In this document: piece by piece, positions 28,096 through 52,835 of the stretch
Numbering within the stretch: position 1 is the stretch's first letter
Layout of the letters: each line of letters opens with the position of its first letter
Origin: Enterobacterales bacterium
GTDB lineage: Bacteria; Pseudomonadota; Gammaproteobacteria; Enterobacterales; GCA-2746155
Reading direction: 5' to 3'
Assembly (NCBI GenBank): GCA_047618765.1
Contig: JBLHLI010000001.1
Location: forward strand, 8,449-72,448
Length of the DNA stretch: 64,000 nt
The notes under the pieces: generated by a model
Databases searched by the model: none
Told to the model about the DNA's origin: nothing
Seen by the model: only the letters and a program-made list of their open reading frames with translations
Position numbers and translations under genes: made by a program

Positions 28096-28504
28096 CCAAG
28101 CTCTATTAGTTCGTGAAGTAATGCTATCTTTAGCTAATACACCAGTGATTAGCGAAAAGGTGATTCTGAAAGAAGCCTTAGAAGAGATGTCGCGCAGTAG
28201 AATAGGTATTGTGTGTATTATCGATGAGCAGGCTAAATTGTTAGGCGTGCTTACGGATGGCGATATACGAAGAAAATTACTTAAAGTACAAAAACCTTTT
28301 TCAGCTTTTTTTGTTGATGATGCTCTTGAACATGCTATTCAATCGCCAACTTCAATTCAGCCTGATGATAGATTGATTGATGCAATACAGTTGATGGGCG
28401 AAAAACAAATTTGGGATTTACCGGTAACAGATTCTAAAGGAGCACTTCAGGGTTTACTCCATCTTCATCCTGCCATTCAGGCCTTAATGGGAATGGAAGC
28501 TTGA
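28079..28504 (+). CDS. Stand-alone CBS-pair protein resembling the C-terminal half of KdsD/KpsF (no SIS isomerase domain)
   Basis: 141 aa. LLGVLTDGDIRRKLL and LQGLLHLHPAIQA parallel E. coli KdsD IEGIFTDGDLRRVF and LLGVLHMHDLLRA. Starts 17 nt inside the kdsA-like gene, so there is no room for an SIS domain. Confidence 0.65.
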   Translation: MSIQNNQALLVREVMLSLANTPVISEKVILKEALEEMSRSRIGIVCIIDEQAKLLGVLTDGDIRRKLLKVQKPFSAFFVDDALEHAIQSPTSIQPDDRLIDAIQLMGEKQIWDLPVTDSKGALQGLLHLHPAIQALMGMEA

Positions 28505-29451: not shown

Positions 29452-29466
29452 ATTAAGTGGATTGAG

Positions 29467-30258
29467 ATGAATAATATCTTTGAAAGTAGAAAAATATTAA
29501 GAGATAAATTAAGAAGTCGCGAACGATTATTTGCGGGTTGGGTATCTTATGCGGAGCCATCGATTACTGAGACGTTTGCGCGAGCAGGTTTTGATTTTAT
29601 GGCTATTGACATGGAACATTCAACCATTACATTGCCTCAAGCCCAGCGTATTATAGCGGCAAGCCAAAGCGAAGGTGTGCCTTGTTTACCGCGTCCGGTT
29701 TCCCAGTCTAATGATTGGTTTAAACCTTTGCTAGAGTCTGGTGCAGATGGACTGTTGGCGCAAATGGTAAATACTCCAGAAGAAGTGCATGATATCATTC
29801 AATGCCTTAAATACCCGCCACTGGGTAATCGTAGTTATGGTCTCAATAGAGCGCAAGCATATGGTTTTGATTTTGAAACGTATATAGAAAATTGGAATGA
29901 TTCTTCTAGTTTGATTATTCAAGTTGAATCAATACATGCGGTTGAAAATATTGATAAACTATTGGCCTTTGATGAAGTTGATGCAGTGATGGTAGGGCCT
30001 TATGATATATCGGGTTCATTAGGCGTCCCGGGCCAAACAACTCATCCTAAAGTTATCGAAGCTTCCAAAAAAGTCATTGATGCTTGTGAACGATTTAATA
30101 AAAGTTGTGGTACTCAAGTAGCCGATGTCTCTACAGAAAATGTACAAGCCTTGTTTGATTTGGGTTATACCTATGCAATCTTAGGTTCCGACTTATTTGT
30201 TCTGTGGAAATGGGCAGAGCGAATGGATGCAATGATGGGCTCACTACGTAAAAAATAA
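29467..30258 (+). CDS. HpcH/HpaI-family (class II, pyruvate-dependent) aldolase
   Basis: FMAIDMEHSTI, IIQVESIHAVENIDKLL and VDAVMVGPYDISGSLGVPGQ follow the HpcH/HpaI TIM-barrel motifs. Confidence 0.7.
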   Translation: MNNIFESRKILRDKLRSRERLFAGWVSYAEPSITETFARAGFDFMAIDMEHSTITLPQAQRIIAASQSEGVPCLPRPVSQSNDWFKPLLESGADGLLAQMVNTPEEVHDIIQCLKYPPLGNRSYGLNRAQAYGFDFETYIENWNDSSSLIIQVESIHAVENIDKLLAFDEVDAVMVGPYDISGSLGVPGQTTHPKVIEASKKVIDACERFNKSCGTQVADVSTENVQALFDLGYTYAILGSDLFVLWKWAERMDAMMGSLRKK

Positions 30259-30267
30259 AAGAAGATT

Positions 30268-31050
30268 ATGAATACTTATTTAAATAGTTTATTTAATTTA
30301 GAAGGTAAAGTGGCTGCAATCATAGGTGCTGGTGGGCACTTATGCAGTGAAATGGCAAGAGGGCTTTCCCAAGCAGGTTGTTCAGTTGTAATACTGGATT
30401 TAAAACTTGAAAAAGCGCAGCTCATTGAAAAAGAATTAAGAGAAATGGGCTGTGACAATGTGATTTCACTTACCATTGATGTGTCACAAAAGCAGCAGCA
30501 TATAGAGGCGCTACAGAAAGTTTTAGATGAATTTGGTGATCTTGATATTCTTGTTAATGGAGCAGGCATTAATGGGCCTACACCATTTCTAGAGATTACT
30601 TTAGATGAATGGCAAGCTATCATGGATTCGCAAATAACCGGTACATTCTTGGGGTGTCAAGTGTTTGGTGCCTACATGCTAGAAAAACAAAAAGGCTCGA
30701 TTATTAATGTCTCATCTGCATCGGCAGGGCCACCCTTATCCAAGGCATTTACCTACTCTGTTGCTAAGGCCGGGATCAAAAATTTAACACTTAACCTAGG
30801 TCGAGAATGGGGAGCAAGAGGTGTTCGTGTCAATGCTATTCGGCCAGGCTTTTTTCCTACTGAATGGAATAGGAAAAATTTTATTGATGCAGGAAGAGAA
30901 AAAGCAATCTTAGGTCATACACCAATGCAGCGTTATGGTGAAGTAAATGAACTAATTGGGGCAATACTTTGGTTGGCTTCAGACGCATCTTCTTTTGTCA
31001 CAGGCTCGGAAGTCACGGTTGATGGTGGGTTTTCGTGCATGACGATTTAG
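30268..31050 (+). CDS. Short-chain dehydrogenase/reductase (SDR)
   Basis: AAIIGAGGHLCSEMA cofactor loop, NGAGIN, catalytic YSVAKAG (YxxxK), IRPGFFPT. Confidence 0.75.
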   Translation: MNTYLNSLFNLEGKVAAIIGAGGHLCSEMARGLSQAGCSVVILDLKLEKAQLIEKELREMGCDNVISLTIDVSQKQQHIEALQKVLDEFGDLDILVNGAGINGPTPFLEITLDEWQAIMDSQITGTFLGCQVFGAYMLEKQKGSIINVSSASAGPPLSKAFTYSVAKAGIKNLTLNLGREWGARGVRVNAIRPGFFPTEWNRKNFIDAGREKAILGHTPMQRYGEVNELIGAILWLASDASSFVTGSEVTVDGGFSCMTI

Positions 31051-31109
31051 GTACTTAATTGACCGCCGTTCTCCGTGCCAACTGAATTTATTATATAGAG
31101 TCTAAATTA

Positions 31110-31859
31110 ATGCAAAATAATGTAGTTGTTATAACTGGAGGTAATAGGGGTATCGGCTTGGATATAACCGAGACTTTTATTAATGCAGGATACAAGGTTA
31201 TTGTAGGTGCAAGACAAGATTTTAATCTGGAGCAACGTTTCGGTGAAAATTTAAGCTTCCTTAAAACCGATGTGCGTAATGAGCAGGCGCATCAAAAGTT
31301 AGTTGAGTATGCGCATAGTAAATACGGAGGTTTGAACGTATTTATCAATAACGCTGGCTTTTCTGAGTGGATGCCAATTGAAGAAATAGAAAATGAATTT
31401 TTAGATGATATTATTAATACAAACATAAAAGGCGTGTTTTGGGGATGCAAGGTGGCTGCCAATACTATGTTAAATGGAGGAAGTATTATTAATATTTCAA
31501 GTCTCGCCGGTAAAAGAGGCAGTACAAATAACTCAGCTTATTGTGCAACAAAGTTTGCAGTTAATGGTATTACACAATCTTTAGCAAAAGAATTGGGGCC
31601 AAAAGGAATAAGGGTGAATGCATTGTGTCCAGTTTTGATTAAAACAGATGGGCTTGTTGAAGCTTTAAAGGGTATACATTCTCCGGCTAAGGGGCAGCCA
31701 GAAGAATTTATAGACAATTTTAGTGCTGCAAATTCAGCATTGGGGAGATTGCCAACAGGTCACGAAGTGGGGAAAATGTGCCTCAGTTTAGCTTCAGATA
31801 ATATGTCAGCCATTACTGGGCAGTGCATTAACGTTGATTGTGGCGTCTTTCCACAGTAG
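31110..31859 (+). CDS. Short-chain dehydrogenase/reductase (FabG-like SDR)
   Basis: VVVITGGNRGIG, NNAGFS, YCATKFA (YxxxK), LCPVLIKT. Confidence 0.8.
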   Translation: MQNNVVVITGGNRGIGLDITETFINAGYKVIVGARQDFNLEQRFGENLSFLKTDVRNEQAHQKLVEYAHSKYGGLNVFINNAGFSEWMPIEEIENEFLDDIINTNIKGVFWGCKVAANTMLNGGSIINISSLAGKRGSTNNSAYCATKFAVNGITQSLAKELGPKGIRVNALCPVLIKTDGLVEALKGIHSPAKGQPEEFIDNFSAANSALGRLPTGHEVGKMCLSLASDNMSAITGQCINVDCGVFPQ

Positions 31860-31871
31860 AGGTTTTGAGTA

Positions 31872-32654
31872 GTGAAAATTATTGCAGTAATACCAGCACA
31901 CCTTGCTTCAGTAAGGTTCCCAAGAAAGATCTTATATCCAATTCACAACTTGCCAATGATAGAGCATGTGCGACGACGTGCTTTGCTCTCAAATGAAATC
32001 TCAAGGGTAATAGTTGCCACATGTGACAATGAAATCGCTAATGTTATTCGTGGATATGGGGGAGAGGTTGTTATGACAGCAAATACCCATACCAATGGTA
32101 CAACACGTGTTGCAGAAGCTATATCTGATATAGAGTGTAGCCACGTCATGTTATTACAAGGTGATGAACCTTTGCTCTTACCTAACCATATTAATTCATT
32201 TGTTGATGCAATTAAAAAAGAACCTGATGTAAAGGCATGGAATGCTACAGGGCCAATTGATAGTGAGGATGAGCTAGACAGGCATTCTTTTGTAAAATGT
32301 GCAGTTTCCCATACCAATGAAATTTTATACTGTTTTCGGCGTTCTCCTTGTTATAGTGATTTTATCCAACAAAAACGCTTCGTTAGAAAGATTTTAGGAA
32401 TTATTGCGTATCGTAAAGATTACCTATTGCAACTAGCATTATCGCCAGTCTCAGCGATAGAACAGGCTGAGTTTATAGAACAAATGCGAATTGTCGAAAA
32501 CGGAGTGAAATTAAAATCTATAGCTGTAAATGAAAGCTTACCTTCAATAAATGAACCGCAAGAAGCTGATATTGTTAAAAAATATATATCGGCTTCGCAA
32601 GAGCAGAAAAAGATACTGCAAGCTATTTTGAATCAAGACGATCTACCTGCGTAA
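31872..32654 (+). CDS. kdsB: KdsB-like 3-deoxy-ulosonate cytidylyltransferase, CMP-sugar synthetase 3
   Basis: [31 protein letters not shown] compares with E. coli KdsB [39 protein letters not shown] compares with NVQGDEPMI. GTG start. Confidence 0.75.
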   Translation: [260 protein letters not shown]

Positions 32655-32656
32655 CC

Positions 32657-34159
32657 GTGCAGCCTGTTAACGAAGAAGGATATCAAAAGCTTTGTAAAGC
32701 GAGTAAAAAAATTTTAACTGCTAGTGATGTTACTGTTGAGCGAATAAGTGTTAGCTGGCTTCATATATTGCGTGCCCACCCATCGTTTTTAAGTAAATAT
32801 AGTCATCTTTTTGAAAATGTTCATTGGTGTATGGCTTATGCCAAGTTGGTAGTAAAAAAAACACGCTACAAATGTATTTGGTTTATTAGAATAGTTCAAT
32901 CAAGCTTTATGGCTAGGTTTAACTACAGTAAAGACAGTCAAGACGAACATGTGGATGTATTATTTATATCCCACCTGTTAAATGCCGAACAATTGTTTAA
33001 TGAAAAAGATTTTTATTATGGAGATTTGGTTGATAAATTATTGAGCCAAAAATATACTGCGCATACAGCATTTATAAACCATACAAAGCTGCATGATATA
33101 AATAAAGTATTAGATGATGGTGGTGAAAAAGTAAATAAATATATTTTTTCTAATGCTTTGTCCTTAAAAGAAGAAATAAACATATTTAACAAATTAAAAA
33201 AAGAGTGCAAAGAGATTAACCGCATTGCTTTGTCGGAAAACTTGGATTTCAACAAAAATTTTTATAGGCAAGCCTCAGTTGAAGCATTGTCTCAAAATTC
33301 AGCATTCAACCTTCGTTTGGCTTGCCAGCTAGAAATGTTAATAAATAAATTACAAGCTAGATTTGTCGTGTTGACGTATGAAGGGCATGCATGGGAAAGA
33401 GTGTTTTGTTCTGTGGTAAGAAATTTTTTCCCTGATGTAAAAATAATTGCATATGTGCATTCTGTTTTGTTTTATAAGCAAGATTCCTTGTTTCAAAGCT
33501 TCGCCCAAGAATTTAAGCCTGACTATGTTTTAACCACTGGAGAGGTGTCAAAAAATCAGCTAAAAAAATCTCATGTTTATTCTAATATTCCTATTTCTGT
33601 ATTAGGCTCATCTCGTGTACTTGATAATAAAGAAAATGGCGATATGGCCTATAAAAATAACAATAAAAATGTTTGTTTGGTTCTGCCTGAAGGAATAATT
33701 AGTGAGTGTAATTTGTTGTTTGAATTTTCATTAGGGTGTGCAAAAATAATGCCATGCATTGATTTTATATGGAGGCTTCACCCAAGTGTTAGTTTTGATC
33801 TCCTATTAAAAGAAAACTGCAATTTAGAATTTTTGCCTAAAAATATTGTTTTATCTGACGCGTCTATTGAAGACGACATGTCAAGGAGTTCTTGGGGGTT
33901 GTATAGAGGGTCTACAGCTATAATTCAATCTGTCATTTCAGGTCTCACACCAATTTACCTTGAAGTGGAGGGCGAAATCACCATCAATCCATTATACGAA
34001 TTCAGCCATAAAATTAAAAAAGTAAAAGGTATTTCAGACTTTAAAAATATTTTTGAAAAAGCTAATGTCGATGATCAACCAAGTAAAGATTTAATGGATT
34101 ATTGTATAAAGATATATCAGCCGTATAATGTACATAGCTTAACGAAGATTATTCAATGA
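32657..34159 (+). CDS. Uncharacterised protein with HP motif; candidate ulosonic-acid (Kdo-like) transferase
   Basis: 500 aa. VCLVLPEG, WRLHPSVSF (HP 375-376), LYRGSTAIIQSVISGLTPIYL (about 43 residues later). Immediately follows the KdsB-like gene with a 2-nt gap. Confidence 0.35.
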   Translation: MQPVNEEGYQKLCKASKKILTASDVTVERISVSWLHILRAHPSFLSKYSHLFENVHWCMAYAKLVVKKTRYKCIWFIRIVQSSFMARFNYSKDSQDEHVDVLFISHLLNAEQLFNEKDFYYGDLVDKLLSQKYTAHTAFINHTKLHDINKVLDDGGEKVNKYIFSNALSLKEEINIFNKLKKECKEINRIALSENLDFNKNFYRQASVEALSQNSAFNLRLACQLEMLINKLQARFVVLTYEGHAWERVFCSVVRNFFPDVKIIAYVHSVLFYKQDSLFQSFAQEFKPDYVLTTGEVSKNQLKKSHVYSNIPISVLGSSRVLDNKENGDMAYKNNNKNVCLVLPEGIISECNLLFEFSLGCAKIMPCIDFIWRLHPSVSFDLLLKENCNLEFLPKNIVLSDASIEDDMSRSSWGLYRGSTAIIQSVISGLTPIYLEVEGEITINPLYEFSHKIKKVKGISDFKNIFEKANVDDQPSKDLMDYCIKIYQPYNVHSLTKIIQ

Positions 34160-35161: not shown

Positions 35162-36028
35162 ATGAACTCCGAAGCCCATGAAATAGTTTCTGTGGTGATA
35201 GCCACCTTAGGTGGTAGCTCATTACATGAAACAATAAAAAGATTGAATTCAGGAACCATAATCCCAACAGAAATTATTGTTTGTATACCTAGGGAGCATG
35301 CAGCTCGTGTTCAAGGGTTTACTTATGATAATGTTAAGGTTTTAGAGACGGCAATAAAAGGCCAGGTTGCACAAAGGGCGCTTGGGTTCAGAGAAGCTCT
35401 TGGCGATTATATTTTACAGATTGATGATGATGTTCTGATAGACGGGAGGTGTCTGGAATACCTTGTTAGGACTTTAAAGACTAATGGCCGCAAAGCTGTT
35501 GCTGGTGCGGCGATATATGAGACTGTTTCAGATAAGCCCGTATATAATAAAATAAAGAAAGGGGTAGTTTTACAAAGAATTTATTATTGGCTGTTGAATG
35601 GAAAAGACGGGTATAAACAAGGTGTTGTTGATCGGGCAGGCGTAAACATAGGCGTGAATTATTTAACGGTTAATGAAGACGAGGTTTCTGTTGAATGGTT
35701 AGCTGGCGGTTGTGTTGCGCACTATAAAGAAAATCTAATATTAGAAAACTTCTATCCGTTTGAAGGTAAGGCCTATAGTGAGGATTTGATCCATTCTTAT
35801 CTGCTATCTTCTGCTGGAAATAAATTAATAGTCAATGTGAATGCTAAATGTTATATAGATATTTTGTGTGCTGACAAGATGAGCTTTAAAGAATATTGGA
35901 ATATCTTTAGATTTGATTATAGGGCGCGACTTTACTACGTTAAACTAACAGAAAAAAGTTTGTTGAGAATGCATGTGTACTATTTGACATGGTTTATGAG
36001 TTATTGTTTTAAACATTTCTTTCGATAA
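35162..36028 (+). CDS. Family 2 (GT-A) glycosyltransferase
   Basis: VSVVIATLGGSS and LQIDDDVL (DxD). Size typical of GT2. Confidence 0.65.
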   Translation: MNSEAHEIVSVVIATLGGSSLHETIKRLNSGTIIPTEIIVCIPREHAARVQGFTYDNVKVLETAIKGQVAQRALGFREALGDYILQIDDDVLIDGRCLEYLVRTLKTNGRKAVAGAAIYETVSDKPVYNKIKKGVVLQRIYYWLLNGKDGYKQGVVDRAGVNIGVNYLTVNEDEVSVEWLAGGCVAHYKENLILENFYPFEGKAYSEDLIHSYLLSSAGNKLIVNVNAKCYIDILCADKMSFKEYWNIFRFDYRARLYYVKLTEKSLLRMHVYYLTWFMSYCFKHFFR

Positions 36029-36838: not shown

Positions 36839-39277
36839 ATGAAATATCTTAAGTTTATATTTCCTTTTGCATATTCTTTGAATATGTTTTCCATGACACT
36901 GATAATAATTTTTTTTGGGTTGTTTGGTCAGCCTGAGATGGCGGCAGACGCGGCTATCATTCATGCCGCTACTTTAGTTGCTTTTATGGCATTCTCTGGT
37001 AATGCAAGAAATATTATCCTTAGCCAAGATAAAACCTTAACAGTTAATCAGCTATTAAGATTTCGATTAGTGTTAGTTTTGCCTTTGTCGTGTTTAGCCT
37101 ATTTCTTATGCTACGGAGTTCTAAGGCCAGAAGCTTTCCTTGTTAATGCTTTAATAATAAGGAGGGCGTTGGAATGGTTTGTGGAACTTCAGATAAGTGA
37201 GAGGGAGCTTTGTGATGATATTGCTTATGCAAAAAAATATTCATTAATACAAGGCACATTAATTACTGTTTTATCGGCTTTAATATTTTTTGACGAAATG
37301 TATTTTCTGCAAATAGTATTGAGTATATGGGCATTTAGCCCAGTTTTGTTTTTATATAAATTCATTAAAGGAAATTTTCATATACATGGTAATGGTTTGG
37401 ATGTGTGGAAGCGCATTCTTCCACACTTAGGCTCAAGTTGGATTATTGCTTGTTCGGCGTATATTTTTAGGCTTTTAATTATTCTGCTTGCTGGTAAGGC
37501 TATCGCCGGTGTGCTTTTTTCTGCCTACGCAATTGGCGGAATGATGAATTCGATTTATACCTATTCAGTCGGGCCAAGTATGGCAAGATTATTAAAAGAT
37601 GGAAAGGTAAAAAAGGAAAAAATATACACTTTTCTTGTGATAGCACTTTTAGCTTTTCTAGGTATATTGTTTGTAGCGTATGCATTTTGGATCGAAAGAG
37701 TTTCTATTGCTCAAGCTGATGCCTATTATTTGCCAATTGGTTTGTCATTTATTGGTGGTGCAATAATGATTGTGGCACAAAGGCAGCGTATACATATCTT
37801 ACAATTGGAAAAAAATAGTGTGTTTGTGCCAGATGTAATCGTTAATATTTTAATTATATCTAGTGTTCCATTTAGTTTCTATCTGTTAGGTGTTGATTCA
37901 CTAACAGGTTTGTTTTTGTGGAATGCAATATTGACATTTCTTTTCTATAAAATACCTTCCATAAATGCTGATTGGATAAGGGGTAAGTTTTCAGTGAGTT
38001 GGTCAAGAAAAATATTAATAGTTTTTGATAGAGATGTCATTCAAGCAATCATTTTATTTTTTTTATTAATGCCAATTTTTTTTCAGCTAGACGGCAGTTT
38101 ATTATTTCATAGTAATCAATTAGTCTTTGATCATGGAGGTAGTTTTTCAAAATTACCTTTACCATATTCAATGTTGGCCTGCTTTTTGGGTTTGGTGTTG
38201 ATAAAGTATAATGATAAAAGCGGACTAGAGGCGAGTGTGTTGTTTGCATTCTTTTCATTGATGATGTTCTCTGTTTATGTAACCTCATTTAATAATCAGA
38301 GCGAGCTGTTAAGTAAGATCATCTTTTTAATACAATTTATTTTGCCTGTGTTTGCTTTAATGTTGGGCCGAGCTTATATCAGCCCCCGACATATTATGTT
38401 GACATACCAGAGTGTGTTTCTATTGGTGTTAGCTTTAATTATCCCTTTGCAAGTACTTATTACAGCGCTATATGGTTTTGGAATTTTAGAGTCAAATATG
38501 TCTTTTTTTAGCATATATCAACATTTACAGTATGTTCCAACAGTGTTGGTAGGTGTTTACGCTGTCATTGTTTTGAGCTATAAAGACGAGCCTATATTTA
38601 GATCCGTAGCGCTAATTTTATTGCCGATAGTCTGGGTTTATGCAGTATTCTCGGGTTCTGTAGTAACTTTGTTTCTAATATTTCTTGTTTCGGTGTTCTT
38701 GTTTTTTTCTTTCTCTGATTTTAAAAAATATAACGATTTGTATAAATTTTTTGCAGCGCTAATTTTTTGTACTGGCGTGCTGATATTTAAAGATTCGGTC
38801 TTGAATTTTTTTGCGCATGGAGGTAGCGAGGAAGCTTATATTTTTAAGAAAATGGTATTAGACGAGAATGGCCTTTTCCGTAATGTCAATGAAAGATTAG
38901 ATATATGGCGGGTGGTTTTAGGGGGAGTGTTTGAAAGTGATAAAACTTTTTGGTTCGGTCATTCAGAACGTATGAGTAAGGATGTGGCGAATAGCGCACA
39001 TAACTATTATTTTGATCTTGTTTATCATTTTGGATTTATAGCAATGTTACCACTTTTATCTTTAATTGCTTATACGGTCTATAAATTTATAAGCTTGTTT
39101 GTTAGAGGGCATTTACCTGTTGATATCGTTGGTTTGTCTTTATTTGTGTTTTTCTTGTTGCTGATTGATAACTCACTAAAGGTTGGCCTAAGGCAGCCTT
39201 ATTCAGGTATAGTAAGCTTTTTCCTTTGGGGGCTTTTGTTGTCAAAGTTGAATGAAAAAAGTTATTCTAGAGATTAA
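36839..39277 (+). CDS. 812-aa polytopic membrane protein with C-terminal Wzy_C (O-antigen polymerase/ligase-like) motif; N-terminal half Wzx/MOP-like
   Basis: Hydrophobic throughout. NSAHNYYFDLVYHFGFIAMLPLL in the C-terminal quarter resembles the Wzy_C loop. The N-terminal ~370 aa (LPHLGSSWIIACSAYIFRLLIILLAGKAIAGVLFSAYAIG) is reminiscent of Polysacc_synt_C-type flippase C-terminal halves. Confidence 0.5.
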   Translation: MKYLKFIFPFAYSLNMFSMTLIIIFFGLFGQPEMAADAAIIHAATLVAFMAFSGNARNIILSQDKTLTVNQLLRFRLVLVLPLSCLAYFLCYGVLRPEAFLVNALIIRRALEWFVELQISERELCDDIAYAKKYSLIQGTLITVLSALIFFDEMYFLQIVLSIWAFSPVLFLYKFIKGNFHIHGNGLDVWKRILPHLGSSWIIACSAYIFRLLIILLAGKAIAGVLFSAYAIGGMMNSIYTYSVGPSMARLLKDGKVKKEKIYTFLVIALLAFLGILFVAYAFWIERVSIAQADAYYLPIGLSFIGGAIMIVAQRQRIHILQLEKNSVFVPDVIVNILIISSVPFSFYLLGVDSLTGLFLWNAILTFLFYKIPSINADWIRGKFSVSWSRKILIVFDRDVIQAIILFFLLMPIFFQLDGSLLFHSNQLVFDHGGSFSKLPLPYSMLACFLGLVLIKYNDKSGLEASVLFAFFSLMMFSVYVTSFNNQSELLSKIIFLIQFILPVFALMLGRAYISPRHIMLTYQSVFLLVLALIIPLQVLITALYGFGILESNMSFFSIYQHLQYVPTVLVGVYAVIVLSYKDEPIFRSVALILLPIVWVYAVFSGSVVTLFLIFLVSVFLFFSFSDFKKYNDLYKFFAALIFCTGVLIFKDSVLNFFAHGGSEEAYIFKKMVLDENGLFRNVNERLDIWRVVLGGVFESDKTFWFGHSERMSKDVANSAHNYYFDLVYHFGFIAMLPLLSLIAYTVYKFISLFVRGHLPVDIVGLSLFVFFLLLIDNSLKVGLRQPYSGIVSFFLWGLLLSKLNEKSYSRD

Positions 39278-39280
39278 AAT

Positions 39281-40723
39281 ATGTCAGAATTCACTGAAAG
39301 TAAATTTCAATTAAAAAAATATTTAATGGTGTTTGTTTCTTTGCCTATTATATGTCTTTTTATTATGGGCGTTTTGGAATATCCGGGTGATGTAACCTAT
39401 TATATTATTTTTTCAGTTGTTTCAAATACGCTGTTATATTTTGGGTTTAGAGAGAATGCGATTTTTTTTGATGCATTTATCGGAGTTTTATTATGGCTTG
39501 GATTTTGGCTAAAGTTTTCATTTAGATTGGTGTTCTTAGAAGCCACGTTTAATGATCCGATAGGTATCTTTTCTGGTACGGCTAGTGAGTTTGACTATGC
39601 AATGCTGGTCTGCTCTGTAGGCTTGTTCGCTTTAATCTTGGCTAGTGCGGTGCGGGAAAAGTTTATATTTTGCTATAAGGAAAAAATGTACTTCAATGAA
39701 GATGCTTCATTATTTTTGTTTTACAAAAATAATAGAGTATGCTTATTACTGTTGTTTTTGTTAGTCGTTGTTGTTGTTTCAGCATCTAATTTGTACCTTG
39801 GTATTTACCAGAGAGGCACCATCCCCAAAACTGTTTTGCCGTATGGACTTGGAGGAGTTTATTCATGGTTGTTGCTTTTTGGTCTGTCATCATTCTCGGC
39901 GTTAATAATATGGTATGAATTAATATTGAAGAAAAAAACTATATTTTTAGTGATATTTATAGCCTTAATTGAAAGTTTTTTCTCCTGCGTTTCTTTGCTG
40001 AGTAGGGCCATGGTTATAAATAGTAGCTCACTATTATATGGATATTATAAAACTCTGAGATTAAATAAAATTGTATTTAGTAAGCGTTATTGCGCAATAA
40101 TTTTTTGTGTGTTTTTCATTCTTTTTGCGATATCAGTTTATAGTGTTAACTATATGAGGCTAAATGCGGTAACGAAACTAGCTCCAGGTGAGGTGATGTC
40201 GGAAACAACAAAAGCGACGGAGACTATAAGTAGTGTAAATGTTTTATTGATTGATAGGTGGGTCGGAATTGAAGGTGTTCTAGCTGTTTCGAGTTATAAT
40301 AATAAAGGCTGGGAACTTTGGAATAGAGCTTGGCAAGAAAAGATATTGTACGATAGAGCCAGTATTTATGATGCAGATATTGCTTTACCTCAAAATATAA
40401 ACCCTGATTTTAGTAAGCACCATTTTTTATCTGTACCAGGTGTGATTGCATTTTGGTTTTATCCTGGCTCATTTATGTTTCTTATGTTGGGTATGTTTTG
40501 CTTGGGGCTGGCTGCTGCGCTAATTGAAGTTTCTGTATATTATTTAGGCGGAAAGAATCTAATTTTATGTGCGCTATTGGCTCAGGTCGTGGCTTATCGT
40601 TATGCGCATTTCGGTTATGTACCACAACAGAGCTATTTGTTATTTGGCGCATTATATTTAAATTTGTTCTTGATTTATTTTTCTAATGTGTTTTTCACTT
40701 ATTGGTATAGAAGCAAGTCATGA
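39281..40723 (+). CDS. 480-aa polytopic membrane protein of unknown function
   Basis: Roughly a dozen hydrophobic segments. No recognisable catalytic motif. Tightly packed between the 812-aa membrane protein and the sugar-nucleotide genes. Confidence 0.4.
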   Translation: MSEFTESKFQLKKYLMVFVSLPIICLFIMGVLEYPGDVTYYIIFSVVSNTLLYFGFRENAIFFDAFIGVLLWLGFWLKFSFRLVFLEATFNDPIGIFSGTASEFDYAMLVCSVGLFALILASAVREKFIFCYKEKMYFNEDASLFLFYKNNRVCLLLLFLLVVVVVSASNLYLGIYQRGTIPKTVLPYGLGGVYSWLLLFGLSSFSALIIWYELILKKKTIFLVIFIALIESFFSCVSLLSRAMVINSSSLLYGYYKTLRLNKIVFSKRYCAIIFCVFFILFAISVYSVNYMRLNAVTKLAPGEVMSETTKATETISSVNVLLIDRWVGIEGVLAVSSYNNKGWELWNRAWQEKILYDRASIYDADIALPQNINPDFSKHHFLSVPGVIAFWFYPGSFMFLMLGMFCLGLAAALIEVSVYYLGGKNLILCALLAQVVAYRYAHFGYVPQQSYLLFGALYLNLFLIYFSNVFFTYWYRSKS

Positions 40724-41592
40724 AAATTTTAATATTGGGTGGCTCTGGCATGCTAGGGTTCCAGCTTTTTAAAGAGTGGCGTGAGTCACATACGGTAAGG
40801 CTTACTTTGCGTGGAAGTAAAGAAGATTACCCGACTAATACACTATTAAATGCTGATACTAATTATTTTAATGTTGATGTTTCATTAATTGATTGTTTGA
40901 AGTCAGTACTTAATGATTTTCGTCCAGATGTAGTTGTAAACGCGATTGGTATTACGAAGCAATTAACTGAGACTTTACCTGTTGAAGTCACCAATTATGT
41001 CAATGCCAGATTTCCTCACTTTTTGTCCGATATCTGTGGGCAGCATCAATGTAGATTGATCCATATGAGTAGCGATTGTGTCTTTTCTGGTAAGAAAGGT
41101 GATTATACCGAAGATGACAAACCTGATGCTGAAGACCTATATGGGCAGAGTAAGTATTTGGGAGAGGTGTCTGCTTCTCACGTACTGACCTTACGAAAAT
41201 CAACTATTGGTTTGGAGTTATCTTCGTCCCATGGTTTGATTGAATGGTTCTTGCAGCAGCAGGGTAATGTAAGAGGGTATACAAAAGCAATTTACTCTGG
41301 TTTGATTGCATCTGAGTTGGCGTCAGTCATAGAGAAAGTTTTGCTGGGCTATCCTGGGTTGAATGGAGTTTTTCATGTTGCTAGCCAAGCGATTAGTAAA
41401 TATGATTTATTGCTGAAATTAAGCCAGCATTTGAATCGAAAAGATATTAATATCATCCCTTTTGATGACTTTATATGCGACCGTAGTTTAAATGGCAGTC
41501 GTTTTTCTGAAATAACAGGATATAAAGCCCCTTCTTGGGATGATATGATAGTAAAATTAGCATCTGAAATAAGCAAAAGAGAATCTACATGA
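40720..41592 (+). CDS. RmlD-like 4-reductase (WbvR-like) of an L-6-deoxy-HexNAc pathway
   Basis: MKILILGGSGMLG and YGQSKYLGE (YxxxK). 4-nt overlaps on both sides with the membrane-protein gene and the dehydratase gene. Confidence 0.6.
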   Translation: MKILILGGSGMLGFQLFKEWRESHTVRLTLRGSKEDYPTNTLLNADTNYFNVDVSLIDCLKSVLNDFRPDVVVNAIGITKQLTETLPVEVTNYVNARFPHFLSDICGQHQCRLIHMSSDCVFSGKKGDYTEDDKPDAEDLYGQSKYLGEVSASHVLTLRKSTIGLELSSSHGLIEWFLQQQGNVRGYTKAIYSGLIASELASVIEKVLLGYPGLNGVFHVASQAISKYDLLLKLSQHLNRKDINIIPFDDFICDRSLNGSRFSEITGYKAPSWDDMIVKLASEISKREST

Positions 41593-42650
41593 TCCTAGAT
41601 AAAAAAGTTGTTCTAGTAACTGGTGGTACCGGTTCTATGGGAAAGGTCTTGGTAAGGCGGTTATTGTCGGGTGAGCTTGGCACACCTACTAAAGTCATTG
41701 TCATGTCTCGTGACGAAGGTAAACAGCATGATATGCGCTTAGCATACCTGCATAAAACAGTCACTACAGATGAAGTCATTTATCGTAATTTTCAACAGAC
41801 TTTAGAGTTTCGTATTGGTGATGTTAGAGATTATCACGATGTTTGTTCCGCGGTTAAGAGTGCTGATGTGGTGATTAATGCAGCAGCATTAAAGCAAGTG
41901 CCTACCTGTGAATATTTTCCTGATCAGGCAGTGTTAACCAATTGCATTGGAGGCATGAACATTGTCCGAGCCATTCGAGAAAATGATTATTCTGTAGAGA
42001 CTGTAGTGGGAATTAGTACCGATAAAGCGGCAAAGCCTGTCAATGTCATGGGAATGACTAAGGCGATTCAAGAGCGTATCTTTACATCTGCGAATATTTT
42101 GAGCCCAGAAACCCGCTTCATTTGTGTACGCTATGGCAATGTAATGGCTTCACGCGGTTCAGTGATGCCTTTATTTCTTGATCAGGTTACTAATGGTGGT
42201 CCATTAACAGTGACTGTACCTGGTATGACACGATTCTTATTAACGCTCAATCAAGCCGTTGATACAGTATTTGCAGCATTGGAAACGGCAGAAGCAGGCG
42301 AAATACTAGTGCCAAATGCGCCTGCAGCCACTGTACTTAACCTTGCTAAGGCATTAATTGGCGAGCGTGATATAGAGATAAAAATAACTGGTATTCGACC
42401 TGGCGAGAAAATGCATGAAGTCATGGTGTCGGAGGAAGAGATTCATCATACCGTAAAACGTGGTGATTATTATGCAATAAAAGCAATGTTGCCGGAGTTG
42501 TTAAATGATAACGGAGAAAATATCTTAACTAAAGAATTTAGCTCCGATGATGATGTTTTAGATTTGGAAGGCACTAGAGAGTTATTGAAAAAAAATAATC
42601 TATTGCCTGGTATGGAAATTCTTTCAGAAGGTGGTGAACTATTAACATGA
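41589..42650 (+). CDS. Soluble CapD/FnlA/WbvB/PseB-type UDP-GlcNAc 4,6-dehydratase (5-inverting class)
   Basis: VTGGTGSMGKVL, NAAALKQVPTCEY, STDKAAKPVNVMGMTKA, RYGNVMASRGSV. Confidence 0.75.
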   Translation: MILDKKVVLVTGGTGSMGKVLVRRLLSGELGTPTKVIVMSRDEGKQHDMRLAYLHKTVTTDEVIYRNFQQTLEFRIGDVRDYHDVCSAVKSADVVINAAALKQVPTCEYFPDQAVLTNCIGGMNIVRAIRENDYSVETVVGISTDKAAKPVNVMGMTKAIQERIFTSANILSPETRFICVRYGNVMASRGSVMPLFLDQVTNGGPLTVTVPGMTRFLLTLNQAVDTVFAALETAEAGEILVPNAPAATVLNLAKALIGERDIEIKITGIRPGEKMHEVMVSEEEIHHTVKRGDYYAIKAMLPELLNDNGENILTKEFSSDDDVLDLEGTRELLKKNNLLPGMEILSEGGELLT

Positions 42651-43780
42651 AGAAATTAAAAGTTGCAACTATAGTGGGGACCCGCCCAGAATTAATTAAA
42701 TTGTCACGTGTTATTGCGGAGCTGGACAATACTGTTGAACATATTTTAGTGCATACAGGGCAGAATTATGATGACGAATTGAATAAAATATTTTTTGATG
42801 ATTTAGAAATCCGGCAGCCCGATTATTATCTTGATGCTGCAGGAGAAAATGCTACACAAACTATTGCACAAGTAATAGCAAAATCAGATGATGTGCTGGC
42901 AAAAGAAAAACCAGATGCAGTATTGTTATATGGTGATACTAACAGCTGTATGGCTGCAATAGTGGCTAAGCGTAGGAAGATACCAGTTTTTCATATGGAA
43001 GCAGGAAATCGTTCTTTTGATGAGAGGGTTCCAGAAGAAATTAATCGTCGTATTGTTGATCATATTAGCGACATCAATATGCCCTTAACTGAGCATGCCA
43101 GACGCTATCTATTGGATGAAGGTATAAGACCAGAAACAATTATTAAAACAGGTTCATGCATGCAAGAGGTGCTTGAATATTATGCGCCTAAAATAGATAA
43201 GTCTGATGTTTTGTCTCGATTAAACTTAAAAGATAAACAGTATTTCTTATTAAGTGCACATAGAGAAGAAAATGTAGATTCACCTGAACGTCTTAAAAAT
43301 TTGTTAGAGTCATTGAATACACTAGTTAATGAATATGATATGCCGGTTATATTTTCTGTTCATCCAAGAACACGAAAACAACTTGAACAACTGGGATATG
43401 ATAATATTGATGAAAGGATTAAATTTAATAAAGCATTAGGCTTTCTTGATTACATTAAACTCCAGCAACATGCAAAATGTGTAATTTCTGATAGCGGTAC
43501 AATTGCTGAAGAATCCTCGTTACTTAATTTGCCAGCTGTGACTATCAGGCAAGCACATGAACGGCCTGAGATGGTAGATGAAGGAACGCTGATTATGACT
43601 GACATTGTTCCGGAGAGATTACTTTTAGCCATTAAAACTACTTTACGTCAATATGAGTCTGATGATTATCAGGTTCGACAAGTACAAGACTATCGGGGTG
43701 GCAAGGTATCAATAAAAGTATCACGTACGATCCAAAGCTATACTGACTACATCAATAGAACAGTGTGGAGAAAAGCGTAG
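42647..43780 (+). CDS. Non-hydrolysing UDP-HexNAc 2-epimerase (WecB/FnlC/WbvD type)
   Basis: IVGTRPELIKLSRV and HMEAGNRSFDERVPEEINRRIVDHISD. Confidence 0.8.
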   Translation: MKKLKVATIVGTRPELIKLSRVIAELDNTVEHILVHTGQNYDDELNKIFFDDLEIRQPDYYLDAAGENATQTIAQVIAKSDDVLAKEKPDAVLLYGDTNSCMAAIVAKRRKIPVFHMEAGNRSFDERVPEEINRRIVDHISDINMPLTEHARRYLLDEGIRPETIIKTGSCMQEVLEYYAPKIDKSDVLSRLNLKDKQYFLLSAHREENVDSPERLKNLLESLNTLVNEYDMPVIFSVHPRTRKQLEQLGYDNIDERIKFNKALGFLDYIKLQQHAKCVISDSGTIAEESSLLNLPAVTIRQAHERPEMVDEGTLIMTDIVPERLLLAIKTTLRQYESDDYQVRQVQDYRGGKVSIKVSRTIQSYTDYINRTVWRKA

Positions 43781-43792: not shown

Positions 43793-45010
43793 ATGAAGAT
43801 AGTTTTTATTTCACAGTGGTATTATCCTGAACCAGATGGCAGGGTCAGTGCTTTAGCTGAGGGCCTTGTTGAAAAAGGGCATGAGGTTACAGTCATTACG
43901 GCTTTTCCAAATTATCCGCAAGGGAAAATATATGATGGTTATAAGGTTTCCCTTTTTCAGCGAGAAGCAATAAATGGCGTGAATGTTATTAGGCTTCCCA
44001 TTTTTGCTGATCATAGTCATTCGGTAATAAAGCGAATGCTCAATTACCTTTCTTTCTTTTTGTCATTATTCTTTCTTGCGCCATGGTTCATTAAAAAAGT
44101 TGATATTTTTTGGAGTTATACTCCTTTTGTTGTTATTCCTACGATTTGGTGTGGTCTGCTATTTAGAAAGCCATATGTGTTAGAAATTACCGATATATGG
44201 CCGGATACTATCAATGAAACCGGAATGATAAATAACAAAAAAATCTTACAGGGGCTTGATCGAGTAGCCCAGATTGGATATCGACACGCTCAAGCAATTA
44301 CCGTTCAAAACCCAGGATTTAAAACCACATTGATTGCTCGGGGTGTAAGCCAAGAAAAAATACACGTCATTGAAAACTGGGCAGATGAAGAGGTTTTTTA
44401 TCCTCTCCCTTATGATAATGAACTTGCAGAAAAGTATGGGCTTGATGGAAAATTCAATATTACTTTTGCGGGTAATATGGGGGTTGCGCAGGATTTATCT
44501 AATATTATAAAAGCAGCAGAAACTTGCCAGAAATACGAAAAAATACAGTTTGTTTTCATTGGCGATGGCGTATGTTTATCCGAGACTAAGCAGCAGGTAC
44601 AAGAAAAAAAATTAAGCAATGTTAAGTTTATAGCAAGGAAGCCATTACAAGACATGGCTGCACTATTTGCAATATCAGACGTTTTGTTGGTGACACTTGC
44701 GGACAAACCCATATTTGAACTTACATTGCCATCGAAAGCTCAGGCCTACATGGCTTGTGAAAAACCCTTATTAATTGCCAAGCGTGGCGATGATATTAAG
44801 TTTTTGAAAGAAGAGGGGTGTGCGGTAATCGTTGAACCTGAAAATTTTAGCCAGTTAGCGGCAGCTGTGTTCCAGCTGTATTCACTCCCTGTAGAGAAAA
44901 GAGATGAAATGGGAAAGAAAAGCCTGAGCTTATATAAGCAAAAGTATACAAAAAATATTTTGTTAAAAAAGATGGAAGCTGTTTTTTTTGATGTGATTAA
45001 TTCCCAATGA
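43793..45010 (+). CDS. GT4 glycosyltransferase, WbuB-like (L-6-deoxy-HexNAc transferase type)
   Basis: MKIVFISQWYYPEP N-terminus typical of the WbuB group. C-terminal GT-B E(x7)E-like region. Directly follows the three sugar-nucleotide genes. Confidence 0.65.
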   Translation: MKIVFISQWYYPEPDGRVSALAEGLVEKGHEVTVITAFPNYPQGKIYDGYKVSLFQREAINGVNVIRLPIFADHSHSVIKRMLNYLSFFLSLFFLAPWFIKKVDIFWSYTPFVVIPTIWCGLLFRKPYVLEITDIWPDTINETGMINNKKILQGLDRVAQIGYRHAQAITVQNPGFKTTLIARGVSQEKIHVIENWADEEVFYPLPYDNELAEKYGLDGKFNITFAGNMGVAQDLSNIIKAAETCQKYEKIQFVFIGDGVCLSETKQQVQEKKLSNVKFIARKPLQDMAALFAISDVLLVTLADKPIFELTLPSKAQAYMACEKPLLIAKRGDDIKFLKEEGCAVIVEPENFSQLAAAVFQLYSLPVEKRDEMGKKSLSLYKQKYTKNILLKKMEAVFFDVINSQ

Positions 45011-46035
45011 CATTCGATAGCTATTCTTTTTTAGGAATTATTTTTTCTCTGGCAGGATTATTAACTGTTATAGGGATTGTATATTACAAGCAGCTTGCTA
45101 ATCGTTTTGGCATAGTGGCAAAAAAGAATTTCAGAACGTTACATGAAGTCGATGTGCCGAGGGGCAGTGGGGTGATTCTTGGTTTAGTGTTTCTTTTTTT
45201 TCTGATTATTTTATGGTGTTTCGCTTATATAAATGACTCTATATTTTCCATTTTACTGATTGGTGGTTTAAGTTCAACGTTGTTTGGTTTGCTTGATGAT
45301 ATTATGGATATCAAAGCGCGTATAAAGTTAATTATACAGTTGCTGCTAAGTGTAATGATATTGTACTCGTTGAATGACAAGTCTAAGCTTATTGTTGAGC
45401 AGTTTTCATTTTTAACAATAATAGGAATTATTCTTTTATTTATTGCTGTTGCTTGGTTTTTGAATCTTGTTAATTTTATGGATGGTGCAGATGGCTTGCT
45501 AGCTACTTGTACCTGCTGCGTTTGTGTAATGCTTTTTGGGCTCTTGTATCTGAATCATTCTGATCTTGATGTTATGATTCTTAGTGGATTGTTGGCGGTG
45601 GTATGTTTAGCTTTCCTCCTTTTTAATTGGCCTCCTGCATCGGTATTTATGGGGGATGCGGGCAGTTTATTTATTGCTTTTGTTCTCGGTGTTTTCATCA
45701 TAAATACAATAGATAAGAGCATCAGCCCTTGGCTTTGGTTGATCATGTTGGGTTATATACTAACTGATACGTGTTTAACATTACTTTTAAGAATAATATT
45801 AGTGAAAAAGTGGTATGGGGCGCATAGAAGCCATGCCTATCAAAATTTTGTCAGAATTCGAGGAGAGCATAAAACTGCATTATATATTATCCTTGCTTAT
45901 CATCTGTTTTGGCTAATGCCGCTATTAGTTTTGGCGAATACTTATCAAACCTATGAAATAGCTTTTGCCTTATTAGCCGTGTTGCCAGTATCTTGCGGGA
46001 CAATAAAATATGGGCCTCTGTTATCCAAGGATTAA
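45007..46035 (+). CDS. WecA/WbpL/MraY-family polyprenyl-phosphate HexNAc-1-phosphate transferase (initiating enzyme)
   Basis: Multi-TM. LLDDIMDI, NLVNFMDGADGL and FMGDAGS motifs of the GT4/MraY superfamily. Confidence 0.8.
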   Translation: MTFDSYSFLGIIFSLAGLLTVIGIVYYKQLANRFGIVAKKNFRTLHEVDVPRGSGVILGLVFLFFLIILWCFAYINDSIFSILLIGGLSSTLFGLLDDIMDIKARIKLIIQLLLSVMILYSLNDKSKLIVEQFSFLTIIGIILLFIAVAWFLNLVNFMDGADGLLATCTCCVCVMLFGLLYLNHSDLDVMILSGLLAVVCLAFLLFNWPPASVFMGDAGSLFIAFVLGVFIINTIDKSISPWLWLIMLGYILTDTCLTLLLRIILVKKWYGAHRSHAYQNFVRIRGEHKTALYIILAYHLFWLMPLLVLANTYQTYEIAFALLAVLPVSCGTIKYGPLLSKD

Positions 46036-46044: not shown

Positions 46045-46710
46045 ATGAATCCATCTATAAAAAAACTTATTGAACAGGGCGTTAAGATACATGATCCAAA
46101 TAGGTTGGATATTAGAGGTAGTCTTGAATGCGGTGACAATACTGAGATAGATATTAATGTCATATTTGAGGGAAAGGTTGTATTGGGCTCAAATGTTAAG
46201 ATAGGCCCCCACTGTATTATTAAAGATTCCAGCATTGCTGATAATGTAGAAATCAAAGCCTACACGATGATAGAAGAATCAATGATTGGCTCAAATAGCT
46301 TTGCTGGGCCGTATTGTAGGATTCGCCCAGGCACAAAAGTGGGTAATTATGTTCAGTTAGGAAATTTTTTGGAAATTAAAAATACTATAATAGGGGATGG
46401 GTGTCGGATAAATCATATGAGCTTTCTTGGTGATGCTGAGTTAGGTAAAAAAGTCACACTAGGTGCTGGTGTAATTACATGTAATTACGATGGTAAAACG
46501 ACACATGAAACATTAATTAATGACGATGCGTTTGTGGGCTCGGGGACTAACCTTATCGCACCTATAGAGGTTGGCGTGAATGCGACTATTGGCGCAGGTT
46601 CAACGATTACTAAGAATGTTGAGGCTGAGTATTTAACCTTAGCGCGTAGCCGACAACATATAGTAAAGGACTGGCAGGGGCCAAAGGATTTGAATCAGAA
46701 TGATGACTGA
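46045..46710 (+). CDS. Stand-alone GlmU C-terminal-domain homolog (LbH acetyltransferase, no uridyltransferase domain)
   Basis: LGDAELGKKVTLGAGVITCNYDGKTTHETLINDDAFVGSGTNLIAPIEVGVNATIGAGSTITKNV aligns by eye with E. coli GlmU [65 protein letters not shown]. Only 221 aa. Confidence 0.75.
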   Translation: MNPSIKKLIEQGVKIHDPNRLDIRGSLECGDNTEIDINVIFEGKVVLGSNVKIGPHCIIKDSSIADNVEIKAYTMIEESMIGSNSFAGPYCRIRPGTKVGNYVQLGNFLEIKNTIIGDGCRINHMSFLGDAELGKKVTLGAGVITCNYDGKTTHETLINDDAFVGSGTNLIAPIEVGVNATIGAGSTITKNVEAEYLTLARSRQHIVKDWQGPKDLNQNDD

Positions 46711-52158: not shown

Positions 52159-52563
52159 CTCTTATCATCATTCTAGCAGTAGCGATAAGTAAACCAAGAA
52201 TCGTTCCAAATAAAATACTGACTGTAATAATTTTTTCGTTGATGGCTGTGTCGTTGGCACAGTTGCCTCCGCTGATGACTGCTCAGGAACTAAGGCGAGA
52301 ATATATTGAAGTGCTATAGGCTTATCAATTTGCAGTGGCTTCACTAACCTCTATGCGTGATGTTTGGCCTCAATCAGAAAAGTTAGCAAACGTTGACATT
52401 TTTTGTGTAGGCGCTTATCAGAAGACGAGTACGTTGGTCATGGCTATAGAAACAAGACAGAAAAAACGGGAATAAGTAGGGTCGAATACGAATGGCGCTT
52501 TGTTCGGCATGAGGTTAAACGGATCTGAGGGGTTGAGTCCTTGATTGAGTAAAAACGAGATGT

Positions 52564-52602: not shown

Positions 52603-52609
52603 CAAAATA

Positions 52610-52686: not shown

Positions 52687-52737
52687 GTAAAATATATATT
52701 GTCTTAGCTATAAGGTTGAGCTAAGACGTCTTAAGAG

Positions 52738-52813: not shown

Positions 52814-52835
52814 ATGTTTACTCTTGAGGGCGCGT

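Follow-up and report, generated by a model that had tools for sequence, protein, structure and literature searches.

Which proteins flip and polymerize the repeat unit in a Wzx/Wzy-type polysaccharide locus that contains no recognizable wzx or wzy gene? This question is raised by a stretch of 64,000 nucleotides (the window) from a marine Enterobacterales metagenome-assembled genome (MAG; contig JBLHLI010000001.1, positions 8,449 to 72,448). No Pfam-recognizable Wzx or ordinary Wzy was found within the 64-kb window or in the 5.2 kb readable upstream of it, and no Wzz-like gene was found in the window. An initial annotation had reported the same absence and had pointed to two adjacent open reading frames (ORFs) of 812 and 480 codons, 3 nt apart, encoding polytopic membrane proteins that are here called A812 and B480. 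Both ORFs are present (36839-39277 and 39281-40723). The only other polytopic proteins of the window are an ABC exporter, a WecA/WbpL-type transferase and a WbpM-like protein.

We propose, with a probability of about 0.5, that A812 and B480 together serve a Wzx/Wzy-type pathway as its module for membrane translocation and assembly. The features on which this proposal is built are as follows.

36839-39277, + strand: A812, 812 aa, ORF with ATG start; fusion of an N-module, a linker and a C-module
36839-37963, + strand: N-module (residues 1-375), 12-helix MOP/Wzx-like putative flippase domain
37964-38029, + strand: linker (residues 376-397), basic and predicted to be cytoplasmic, with short amphipathic helices (DSSP of the model; 4 K/R in 23 residues)
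38030-39274, + strand: C-module (residues 398-812), Wzy_C/WaaL-like 12-helix domain
38990-39037, + strand: NSAHNYYFDLVYHFGF loop (residues 718-733) with the H-N-X9-G motif of Wzy_C/WaaL proteins
39281-40723, + strand: B480, 480 aa, ORF with ATG start; 12 helices, unclassified family, putative repeat-unit polymerase
40181-40471, + strand: predicted periplasmic loop of B480 (residues 301-397), with invariant D325, R326, G329, E331, E353, D364, P386 and G387

Modular architecture of A812

The A812 gene ends with a TAA codon at 39275-39277, 3 nt before the ATG of the B480 gene (39281), and the B480 stop codon overlaps the start of the next gene in an ATGA sequence at 40720-40723. The short gap and the overlap indicate that the three genes are tightly coupled. 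A hydropathy scan distinguished 17 strongly hydrophobic segments in A812 and nine in B480, while the AlphaFold models of these proteins contain about 24 and 12 membrane helices, respectively. The A812 model (AF2, built with 44 homologues) has a pLDDT of 85.2 and a pTM of 0.88. Searches of Pfam, NCBIfam and the PDB (the latter with both the single sequence and the family profile) revealed no sequence match to A812.

The homologue search yielded 57 proteins, mostly of about 800 aa, which aligned over the full length of A812. Homologues are designated here by P numbers and fetched loci by L numbers. Proteins P0052-P0055 (about 770 aa) combine a GT4 glycosyltransferase with a region matching A812 residues 5-375 and ending there, although the alignment of P0054 reaches residue 416. 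Homologue P0005 (1372 aa) has the order GT4, N-module, C-module. In P0003, P0009, P0013 and P0014 (about 1000 aa) Sel1 repeats are inserted between A812 residues ~613 and 663. The inserted stretch, about 225 residues long, breaks the C-module match at query positions 613-663 in these four proteins and in P0005, and suggests an extra periplasmic surface for protein interactions.

To follow the two modules separately, local hidden Markov models (HMMs) made from A812 residues 1-385 (N) and 400-812 (C) were searched against 85 fetched loci. Each module was found on its own, so that the 812-aa protein can be regarded as a fusion, as the initial annotation had supposed, and the split forms that it suggested looking for do exist. 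The N-module occurs as a separate protein in L016 (379 aa) and L067 (390 aa), and joined to a GT4 enzyme (about 770 aa) in L001 and five SAR11 loci. The C-module occurs as a separate protein of 428-479 aa, adjoining a B480 homologue, in L006, L007, L011, L018 and L055; the stand-alone form of L006 (468 aa) aligns to A812 residues 403-806 with 35% identity. In the SAR11/Pelagibacter loci (L061, L064, L065, L069 and L070) the proteins have about 775 aa and carry the N-module at residues ~390-765, an arrangement corresponding to the GT4-N architecture of P0052-P0055. They adjoin a B480 homologue, with neither a C-module nor an L-hexosamine cassette nearby.

Architectures were counted in 60 species-representative loci with at least 15 kb of sequence. 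The two modules are fused in 37/60 loci, only the N-module is present in 7/60 and neither in 16/60, which makes the fusion the commonest architecture. Among its carriers are Beta-, Gamma-, Delta- and Zetaproteobacteria, Elusimicrobia and a Thermoflexus MAG. The two-module fusion is therefore real, common and taxonomically broad. An assembly or frameshift artefact was considered as the origin of the fusion and rejected, since the same architecture is present in 37 independent genomes.

The A812 model was compared with PDB structures using Foldseek. Ranks 1-11 are all occupied by transporters of the MOP superfamily (WzxE 9g9n and others, MATE, MurJ), with alignments of 403-458 columns to targets of 406-466 residues, TM-scores per target of 0.45-0.57 and a probability of 1.0. 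The output contains no query coordinates, so it does not directly indicate which A812 residues align; we place the match on the N-terminal half because the C-terminal half is independently Wzy_C/WaaL-like (see below). The MOP targets are covered nearly whole (about 400 columns, compared with the 411 aa of WzxE), and the N-module would thus be a complete 12-helix MOP-like domain. In the initial annotation the N-terminal ~370 residues were read as the C-terminal half of a MOP/Wzx flippase. The MOP likeness is upheld at the level of predicted fold, as a structural resemblance only, whereas the half becomes a whole domain.

In the model, helices 1-6 (residues 2-28, 32-52, 69-92, 99-124, 128-151 and 154-179) are followed by a cytoplasmic loop and by helices 7-12 (residues 198-218, 220-251, 257-286, 293-322, 329-350 and 352-374). 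Both termini are inside, and the cytoplasmic loop separates two six-helix halves. The predicted model (pLDDT 85) has the 12-helix, two-lobe organization of MOP proteins. Residues R57, R76, R108, E112, E116, E123, H196, R211, R317 and D332 are invariant and K220 is conserved; the invariant residues are located inside helices or at helix ends, and the basic cytoplasmic linker follows the module. For WzxE, pairs of luminal Arg residues with an associated acidic residue have been described, as well as a C-terminal Arg tail that is essential (PMC11706664). The charged-residue pattern of the N-module may be likened to this arrangement, as a resemblance and not as a test.

Several observations count against a flippase function of the N-module. 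The Foldseek E-values of the MOP matches are only about 0.02, and the position of the match within A812 is assigned indirectly. None of the MOP family models (Polysacc_synt, Polysacc_synt_3, Polysacc_synt_C, MatE, MurJ) matched A812, its 44 homologues or the stand-alone N-modules. When the N-module was compared by hhalign with eight conventional Wzx proteins encoded in the fetched loci, the probability was 0.4, and HMM and hhalign comparisons with E. coli WzxE and RfbX gave no match. The assignment to the MOP fold is made from the predicted model, with no link at the sequence level. Two Elusimicrobia loci (L058 and L074) contain a conventional Wzx besides the N-module, and the ABC exporter of the window could flip the unit instead.

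These observations would fit an N-module that serves as a membrane scaffold or as an extension of a polymerase or ligase, with translocation carried out by the ABC exporter (1639-3483) or by a Wzx encoded elsewhere. We regard such a role as improbable. The top structural neighbours are consistently MOP proteins and nothing else, covered over their whole length, and the invariant intramembrane Arg, Glu, His and Asp residues resemble in kind the Arg pairs on the luminal side of WzxE (PMC11706664). Moreover, where the N-module is absent B480 usually adjoins a flippase of another type, and the ABC exporter lies 33 kb away beside a TagF-like gene, which suggests that it serves a separate polymer. 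The N-module is probably the flippase for this repeat unit. It appears to represent an unrecognized MOP-like family, new in the material searched.

The C-module was assigned on the basis of several matches. The Pfam model Wzy_C (PF04932) matched six of the 44 homologues at E<0.1 with the full model covered, and two of these, P0032 (32.3 bits) and P0035 (32.7 bits), exceed its gathering score of 31.7 bits; A812 itself is below every Pfam threshold. The WaaL ligase (7tpg_B) occupies rank 12 of the Foldseek comparison (420 columns, TM-score per target 0.45, probability 1.0). The C-module HMM gave a weak co-linear match to residues 185-307 of E. coli K-12 WaaL (14.9 bits), while the remaining pairs of modules and E. 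coli references (WzxE, RfbX, WzyE, WbbH, WaaL) scored about zero or lower. The modelled C-module has a WaaL-like fold and layout, with 12 helices, both termini inside and a large periplasmic loop of 73 residues between helices 9 and 10. Together these results bear out the Wzy_C-type domain of the initial annotation, which had quoted the NSAHNYYFDLVYHFGF loop as O-antigen polymerase/ligase-like. In A812 the motif reads H721-N722...G732.

Within the C-module family N722 is invariant, Y723, D726 and G732 are nearly so, and R785, Q561 and Y565 are invariant or almost so. By motif and Pfam register, H721 would be equivalent to the catalytic His of WaaL. A point against the proposal made here is that this presumed catalytic residue is not conserved: position 721 is H in 25 and Y in 17 of the 44 homologues, and among 54 species-locus copies it is H in 38, Y in 8, Q in 3, R in 3 and L in 2. 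The C-module is thus WaaL-like in fold but belongs to no canonical ligase family, and catalysis by way of the motif His may be lacking in some lineages. In L011 (7495-11335) and L055 (5393-12142) the fused C-module lacks the motif His (Q or L), and an adjacent stand-alone C-module retains it.

Taken as a whole, A812 is very probably a fusion of a MOP-fold and a Wzy_C-fold domain. No description of a natural Wzx-Wzy_C or flippase-ligase fusion was found in the literature searched, and such fusions are not mentioned in the CAZy classification of these enzymes. The covalent flippase-Wzy_C architecture, as well as the GT4-flippase architecture, appears to be new in the material searched, while the kinds of component (flippase, Wzy_C domain, polymerase) are already known.

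B480 and the proposed pathway

Neither B480 nor any of 67 homologues has a match in Pfam or NCBIfam, and no PDB sequence match to B480 was obtained with the single sequence or with the family profile. A word-indexed search revealed at least 924 relatives; the top 120 share 46-55% identity with B480, and none of them is named or has a Pfam domain. When 1.84 billion cluster representatives were searched exhaustively with the family profile, the clusters being counted at 50% identity, 1167 matched at E≤1e-3, 961 at E≤1e-10 and 518 at E≤1e-30. Judged by its sequences, the family is isolated, with little halo of remote relatives. A further search that started from the most divergent members (26-31% identity) again yielded only "hypothetical" proteins lacking Pfam domains, and tblastn of B480 against a plasmid collection gave no match. 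B480 appears to represent a family that is not yet classified, comprises about a thousand clusters at 50% identity and is new in the material searched. The initial annotation considered the protein unassignable; it is still without a named family, but it can now be placed in a large, conserved one that is the constant partner of flippases for lipid-linked glycans.

The AlphaFold model of B480 (AF2; pLDDT 85.1, pTM 0.86) has no credible Foldseek neighbour in the PDB (best probability 0.08), and its fold matched none of the GT-C enzymes of the ArnT, PglB, PMT or Emb type (best probabilities 0.01-0.02). The same procedure finds MOP and WaaL proteins for A812 and nothing for B480, so that Foldseek matches are not automatic for any helical bundle. 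Profile comparisons of B480 with A812, the C-module, WaaL, WzyE and E. coli O16 Wzy were negative, as were those of the N-module with the C-module, of N-half with N-half, of each module with conventional Wzx proteins and of each module with neighbouring proteins of about 400 aa. Counting along the model helices gave 8 K/R in 51 inside-loop residues and 3 in 39 outside. By this positive-inside bias both termini are assigned to the cytoplasm, and the 97-residue loop that joins helices 9 and 10 to the periplasm.

Polymerases and ligases that use sugar-diphospholipids have a common general layout, in which conserved residues are located at the outer face and a long extracytoplasmic loop is present (PMC10920833). 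B480, in its predicted topology, is likewise polytopic, with a long extracytoplasmic loop and conserved outer-face residues. The outer face holds 36 of the 51 invariant residues, including Y34/G36, D105, Y176/Q177/G179, S241/R242, D325/R326/E331, E353, D364 and R440/Y446.

The genes downstream of B480 encode the following predicted proteins.

40720-43780, + strand: RmlD-like reductase, FnlA/PseB-like 4,6-dehydratase and WecB-type 2-epimerase (Pfam, NCBIfam)
43793-46035, + strand: WbuB/WcaI-like GT4 glycosyltransferase, then a WecA/WbpL-type initiating transferase
45007-46035, + strand: the WecA/WbpL-type initiating transferase
50203-52158: WbpM/PglF-type dehydratase

A reductase, a dehydratase and a 2-epimerase of these kinds form an established type of route to UDP-2-acetamido-2,6-dideoxy-L-hexoses (L-RhaNAc, L-QuiNAc or L-FucNAc). 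The trio of the window is probably such a cassette, the identity of the sugar being inferred. Linkage of this cassette to B480 is frequent: within 8 kb of B480 the RmlD-like reductase is found in 46/60 loci, the FnlA-like dehydratase in 45/60, the WecB-type 2-epimerase in 48/60 and the WbuB-like GT4 in 49/60.

In most loci a B480 homologue adjoins the N-C fusion, in either order. Cultivable candidates among the carriers are Pseudomonas migulae NBRC 103157, Herbaspirillum autotrophicum IAM 14942, Mariprofundus micogutta ET2 and Methylotuvimicrobium sp. KM1. Where the N-module is absent, a conventional Wzx is often found beside B480, as in L032, L049, L077 and L083 (Pfam Polysacc_synt or Polysacc_synt_3); the local HMMs add L078, L080 and L081 to the loci with conventional Wzx. 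In three further loci, MprF-flippase-like LPG_synthase_TM proteins of 318-332 aa are encoded directly upstream of B480 homologues, in place of the N-module or Wzx (L031, 7011-7967; L042, 6986-7984 and 9538-10530; L075, 6964-7938). Three unrelated types of flippase thus share B480 as their constant partner, which argues that the substrate of B480 is a flipped, lipid-linked one.

Some loci are reduced to a flippase and one further candidate. In L016 (17 kb) the only polytopic proteins are the N-module, B480 and a WbpL-like transferase. The Polaromonas cluster L083 comprises wzx, GT2, GT10, a B480-like gene, two GT4 genes, the reductase and the dehydratase, followed by the 2-epimerase, a phosphoglycosyl transferase and a WbpM-like gene, and its sole Wzy candidate in the full annotation is the B480-like protein. 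B480 is accordingly the only polytopic candidate besides the flippase in L016 and L083, whereas in the window the C-module is a second one. One Deltaproteobacteria MAG contig (L018 and L021) carries three intact copies of B480 within about 40 kb, and another MAG contig (L073 and L076) contains runs of B480 fragments resembling pseudogenes or frameshifts. Linkage to a specific unit, the presence of up to three copies and the minimal flippase-plus-one loci are expected of a Wzy and not of a ligase.

In the pathway that we propose, the product would be an O-antigen or capsule repeat unit containing a 2-acetamido-2,6-dideoxy-L-hexose; an initiating transferase of the WecA/WbpL type and a WbpM-like dehydratase are present in the locus. 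Judging from fold and context, the N-module would flip the completed unit, linked to undecaprenyl diphosphate (Und-PP), to the periplasmic face of the membrane. The fused C-module would then bind the flipped Und-PP-glycan and either pass it to an acceptor, acting as a ligase-like enzyme or a second polymerase, or hand it on. Finally, the gene context suggests that the translationally coupled B480 would polymerize the repeat units as the functional Wzy of an unclassified family. On the last point, the attribution of polymerization to B480 rather than to the C-module, we consider the odds to be even.

Two findings tell against B480 as the polymerase. It has no similarity in sequence or fold to a known Wzy, WaaL, SEDS or GT-C enzyme, and most loci encode a second Wzy-like protein, either a C-module or an unrelated polytopic protein of about 400 aa, which is possibly the true polymerase. 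The roles could then be reversed, with the C-module polymerizing (a true Wzx-Wzy fusion) and B480 acting, for example, as a ligase to the final acceptor or as a periplasmic modifying transferase. The Wzy_C domain family to which the C-module belongs includes known polymerases as well as ligases; its many conserved Tyr and Arg/Lys residues, together with the variable His, bring it nearer to polymerase families than to WaaL (PMC10920833), and C-modules are often paired 1:1 with B480, also in the duplicated pairs of L018. We nevertheless find this exchange of functions rather unlikely. A flippase and B480 occur together with no C-module in L001, L016 and the five SAR11 loci, and in L077, L081 and L083 with a conventional Wzx. 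It is rare for a ligase to be specific to one unit, to occur in several copies or to be linked to a single sugar cassette, and all three apply to B480. In addition, B480-like genes are present in MAGs of lineages that lack lipid A (Patescibacteria, L082; Thermoflexus, L039), where the binning is possibly wrong.

A different function is conceivable for B480 in a three-component system, in which a cytoplasmic GT2 enzyme makes an undecaprenyl-phosphate-linked sugar, a flippase moves it and B480, as a GT-C-like periplasmic glycosyltransferase, adds it as a side branch. Two GT2 genes (one at 35162-36028) and a reductase gene are located shortly upstream of A812, a GtrA-like gene is present upstream of the window, LPG_synthase_TM proteins directly precede B480 in L031, L042 and L075, and the periplasm-facing conserved residues of B480 are compatible with such an enzyme. 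However, homologues of the 35162-36028 GT2 accompany B480 in just 6/60 loci and those of the other GT2 of the window in 11/60, the fold comparisons with GT-C enzymes described above were negative, and L083 has no other polymerase candidate. We therefore consider a side-branch transferase a distinctly weak contender. A general GtrB/ArnC-type three-component system was also considered and rejected, as the GT2 gene is not co-conserved (6/60 loci).

A bolder version of the proposal may also be formulated. B480 would be a structurally new class of periplasm-facing enzyme acting on lipid-linked glycans, unrelated to GT-C, SEDS and WaaL proteins, and would supply catalysis beside a Wzy_C domain that is tethered to a flippase; in those family members whose Wzy_C domain has lost the catalytic His, this domain would be a non-catalytic "catch" module passing flipped units to B480, and the pair would form a hard-wired flip-and-polymerize machine. 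We offer this as speculation that is unlikely to hold.

The surrounding polysaccharide locus

The polysaccharide locus extends over about 57 kb. It starts with a NusG/RfaH-like gene that lies 5 kb before the window and ends with the WbpM-like gene (50203-52158), after which ccmH is located. In the sequence upstream of the window (L086/L090), the ORFs at 249-734 and 4769-5116 encode the NusG/RfaH-like protein of the locus start and a 115-aa GtrA-like small membrane protein. The GC content is about 0.30-0.40 in the locus (window positions 1-52000) and 0.41-0.48 in the flanking ccmH/SMC region (52000-64000), a contrast that is consistent with a horizontally exchanged island. All genes of the locus but one are on the + strand. 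The 326-aa ORF at 25316-26296 (- strand), which has no Pfam match, is the sole minus-strand ORF of at least 150 aa within the locus.

At the beginning of the window two genes are found that may relate to translocation of another polymer.

1639-3483, + strand: ABC exporter of MsbA/PglK type, 614 aa (ABC_membrane and ABC_tran)
3523-4860: TagF-like glycerophosphotransferase gene, directly after the ABC exporter

Besides the N-module, the exporter is the only further translocation candidate in the window. The initial annotation, which recognized no separate Wzx flippase in the locus, is to be corrected in this respect. The exporter and the TagF-like gene suggest that a second, ABC-dependent polymer is encoded in the same locus.

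Genes for several nonulosonic-acid pathways are grouped within the locus. They include three genes of the NeuB family (6726-7766, 12672-13709 and 20802-21845), a PseC equivalog and cytidylyltransferases, and the ORF at 10581-11810 belongs to the same group. A second group (27214-32654) comprises a gene similar to KDO-8-P/DAHP synthases, an HpcH/HpaI aldolase, two short-chain dehydrogenases/reductases and a CTP_transf_3 cytidylyltransferase, and looks like a route to a further activated ulosonic acid; the 316-aa ORF at 28501-29451 within it has no Pfam match. The gene at 22194-23810 encodes a PFTS-motif polysaccharide protein (TIGR04417, 1.8e-101). Shortly upstream of A812, the ORF at 32657-34159 encodes a soluble 500-aa protein with no Pfam or NCBIfam match. 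The product of 46045-46710 (221 aa) has a match to GlmU in the C-terminal acetyltransferase half alone (positions 241-450 of 452), and is a stand-alone hexapeptide acetyltransferase.

Significance and comparison with known systems

To our knowledge, there is no settled view of how Wzx hands flipped repeat units to Wzy or WaaL, and the existence of a stable Wzx-Wzy complex is a proposal that awaits demonstration. The fusion of a flippase-like and a Wzy_C-type domain, natural and widespread as it is, provides genomic evidence for direct coupling, and A812 offers a single natural polypeptide for structural work and for studies of hand-off from flippase to polymerase or ligase. Neither the N-module nor the 480-aa family is seen by Pfam or NCBIfam, and for this reason the clusters encoding them are at present annotated as lacking wzx and wzy. 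The prediction of serotypes and pathways is affected in many Proteobacteria from the environment, SAR11 among them. With a conservation that is unusual for a putative polymerase and a link to a single sugar cassette, the 480-aa family is also a tractable entry to polymerase specificity.

Compared with Wzx and other MOP proteins (E. coli WzxE, PDB 9G9N/9G97; MurJ), the modelled N-module shares 12 helices, termini located inside, two six-helix halves, invariant intrahelical Arg and acidic residues, a basic segment after helix 12 and a position in a Wzx/Wzy-type locus. It differs in being shorter (about 375 aa versus 411-520), in escaping detection by Pfam MOP models and profile comparison, and in its covalent fusion, which joins it to a Wzy_C-type domain here and to a GT4 glycosyltransferase in other genomes.

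Proteins of the WaaL/Wzy_C type (PF04932; PDB 7TPG) are classified in CAZy family GT121 and clan GT-C1. The predicted C-module has their 12 helices and their long periplasmic loop between helices 9 and 10, with the H-N-X9-G motif in this loop. In contrast to WaaL, about 30-40% of the family have Y, Q, R or L at the position of the catalytic His, R215 of WaaL aligns with no conserved Arg, and the module is fused to a flippase-like domain and in some homologues interrupted by Sel1 repeats.

Repeat-unit polymerases of the Wzy type are placed in CAZy families GT122-GT135, and the polymerase of enterobacterial common antigen, WzyE, in GT120. B480 has in common with Wzy proteins a polytopic build, conserved residues at the predicted outer face and a long extracytoplasmic loop near the C-terminus (PMC10920833), as well as a locus position typical of wzy and unit-specific linkage. 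It differs in that comparisons of sequence, profile and fold with WzyE, E. coli O16 Wzy, WaaL and the C-module, with Pfam and NCBIfam as the family models searched, revealed no similarity, and in its unusual conservation, with about 50% identity across classes.

With regard to the proposed Wzx-Wzy-Wzz complexes, a flippase-like module covalently joined to the next enzyme of the pathway, as found in A812, is what a model of physical hand-off predicts.

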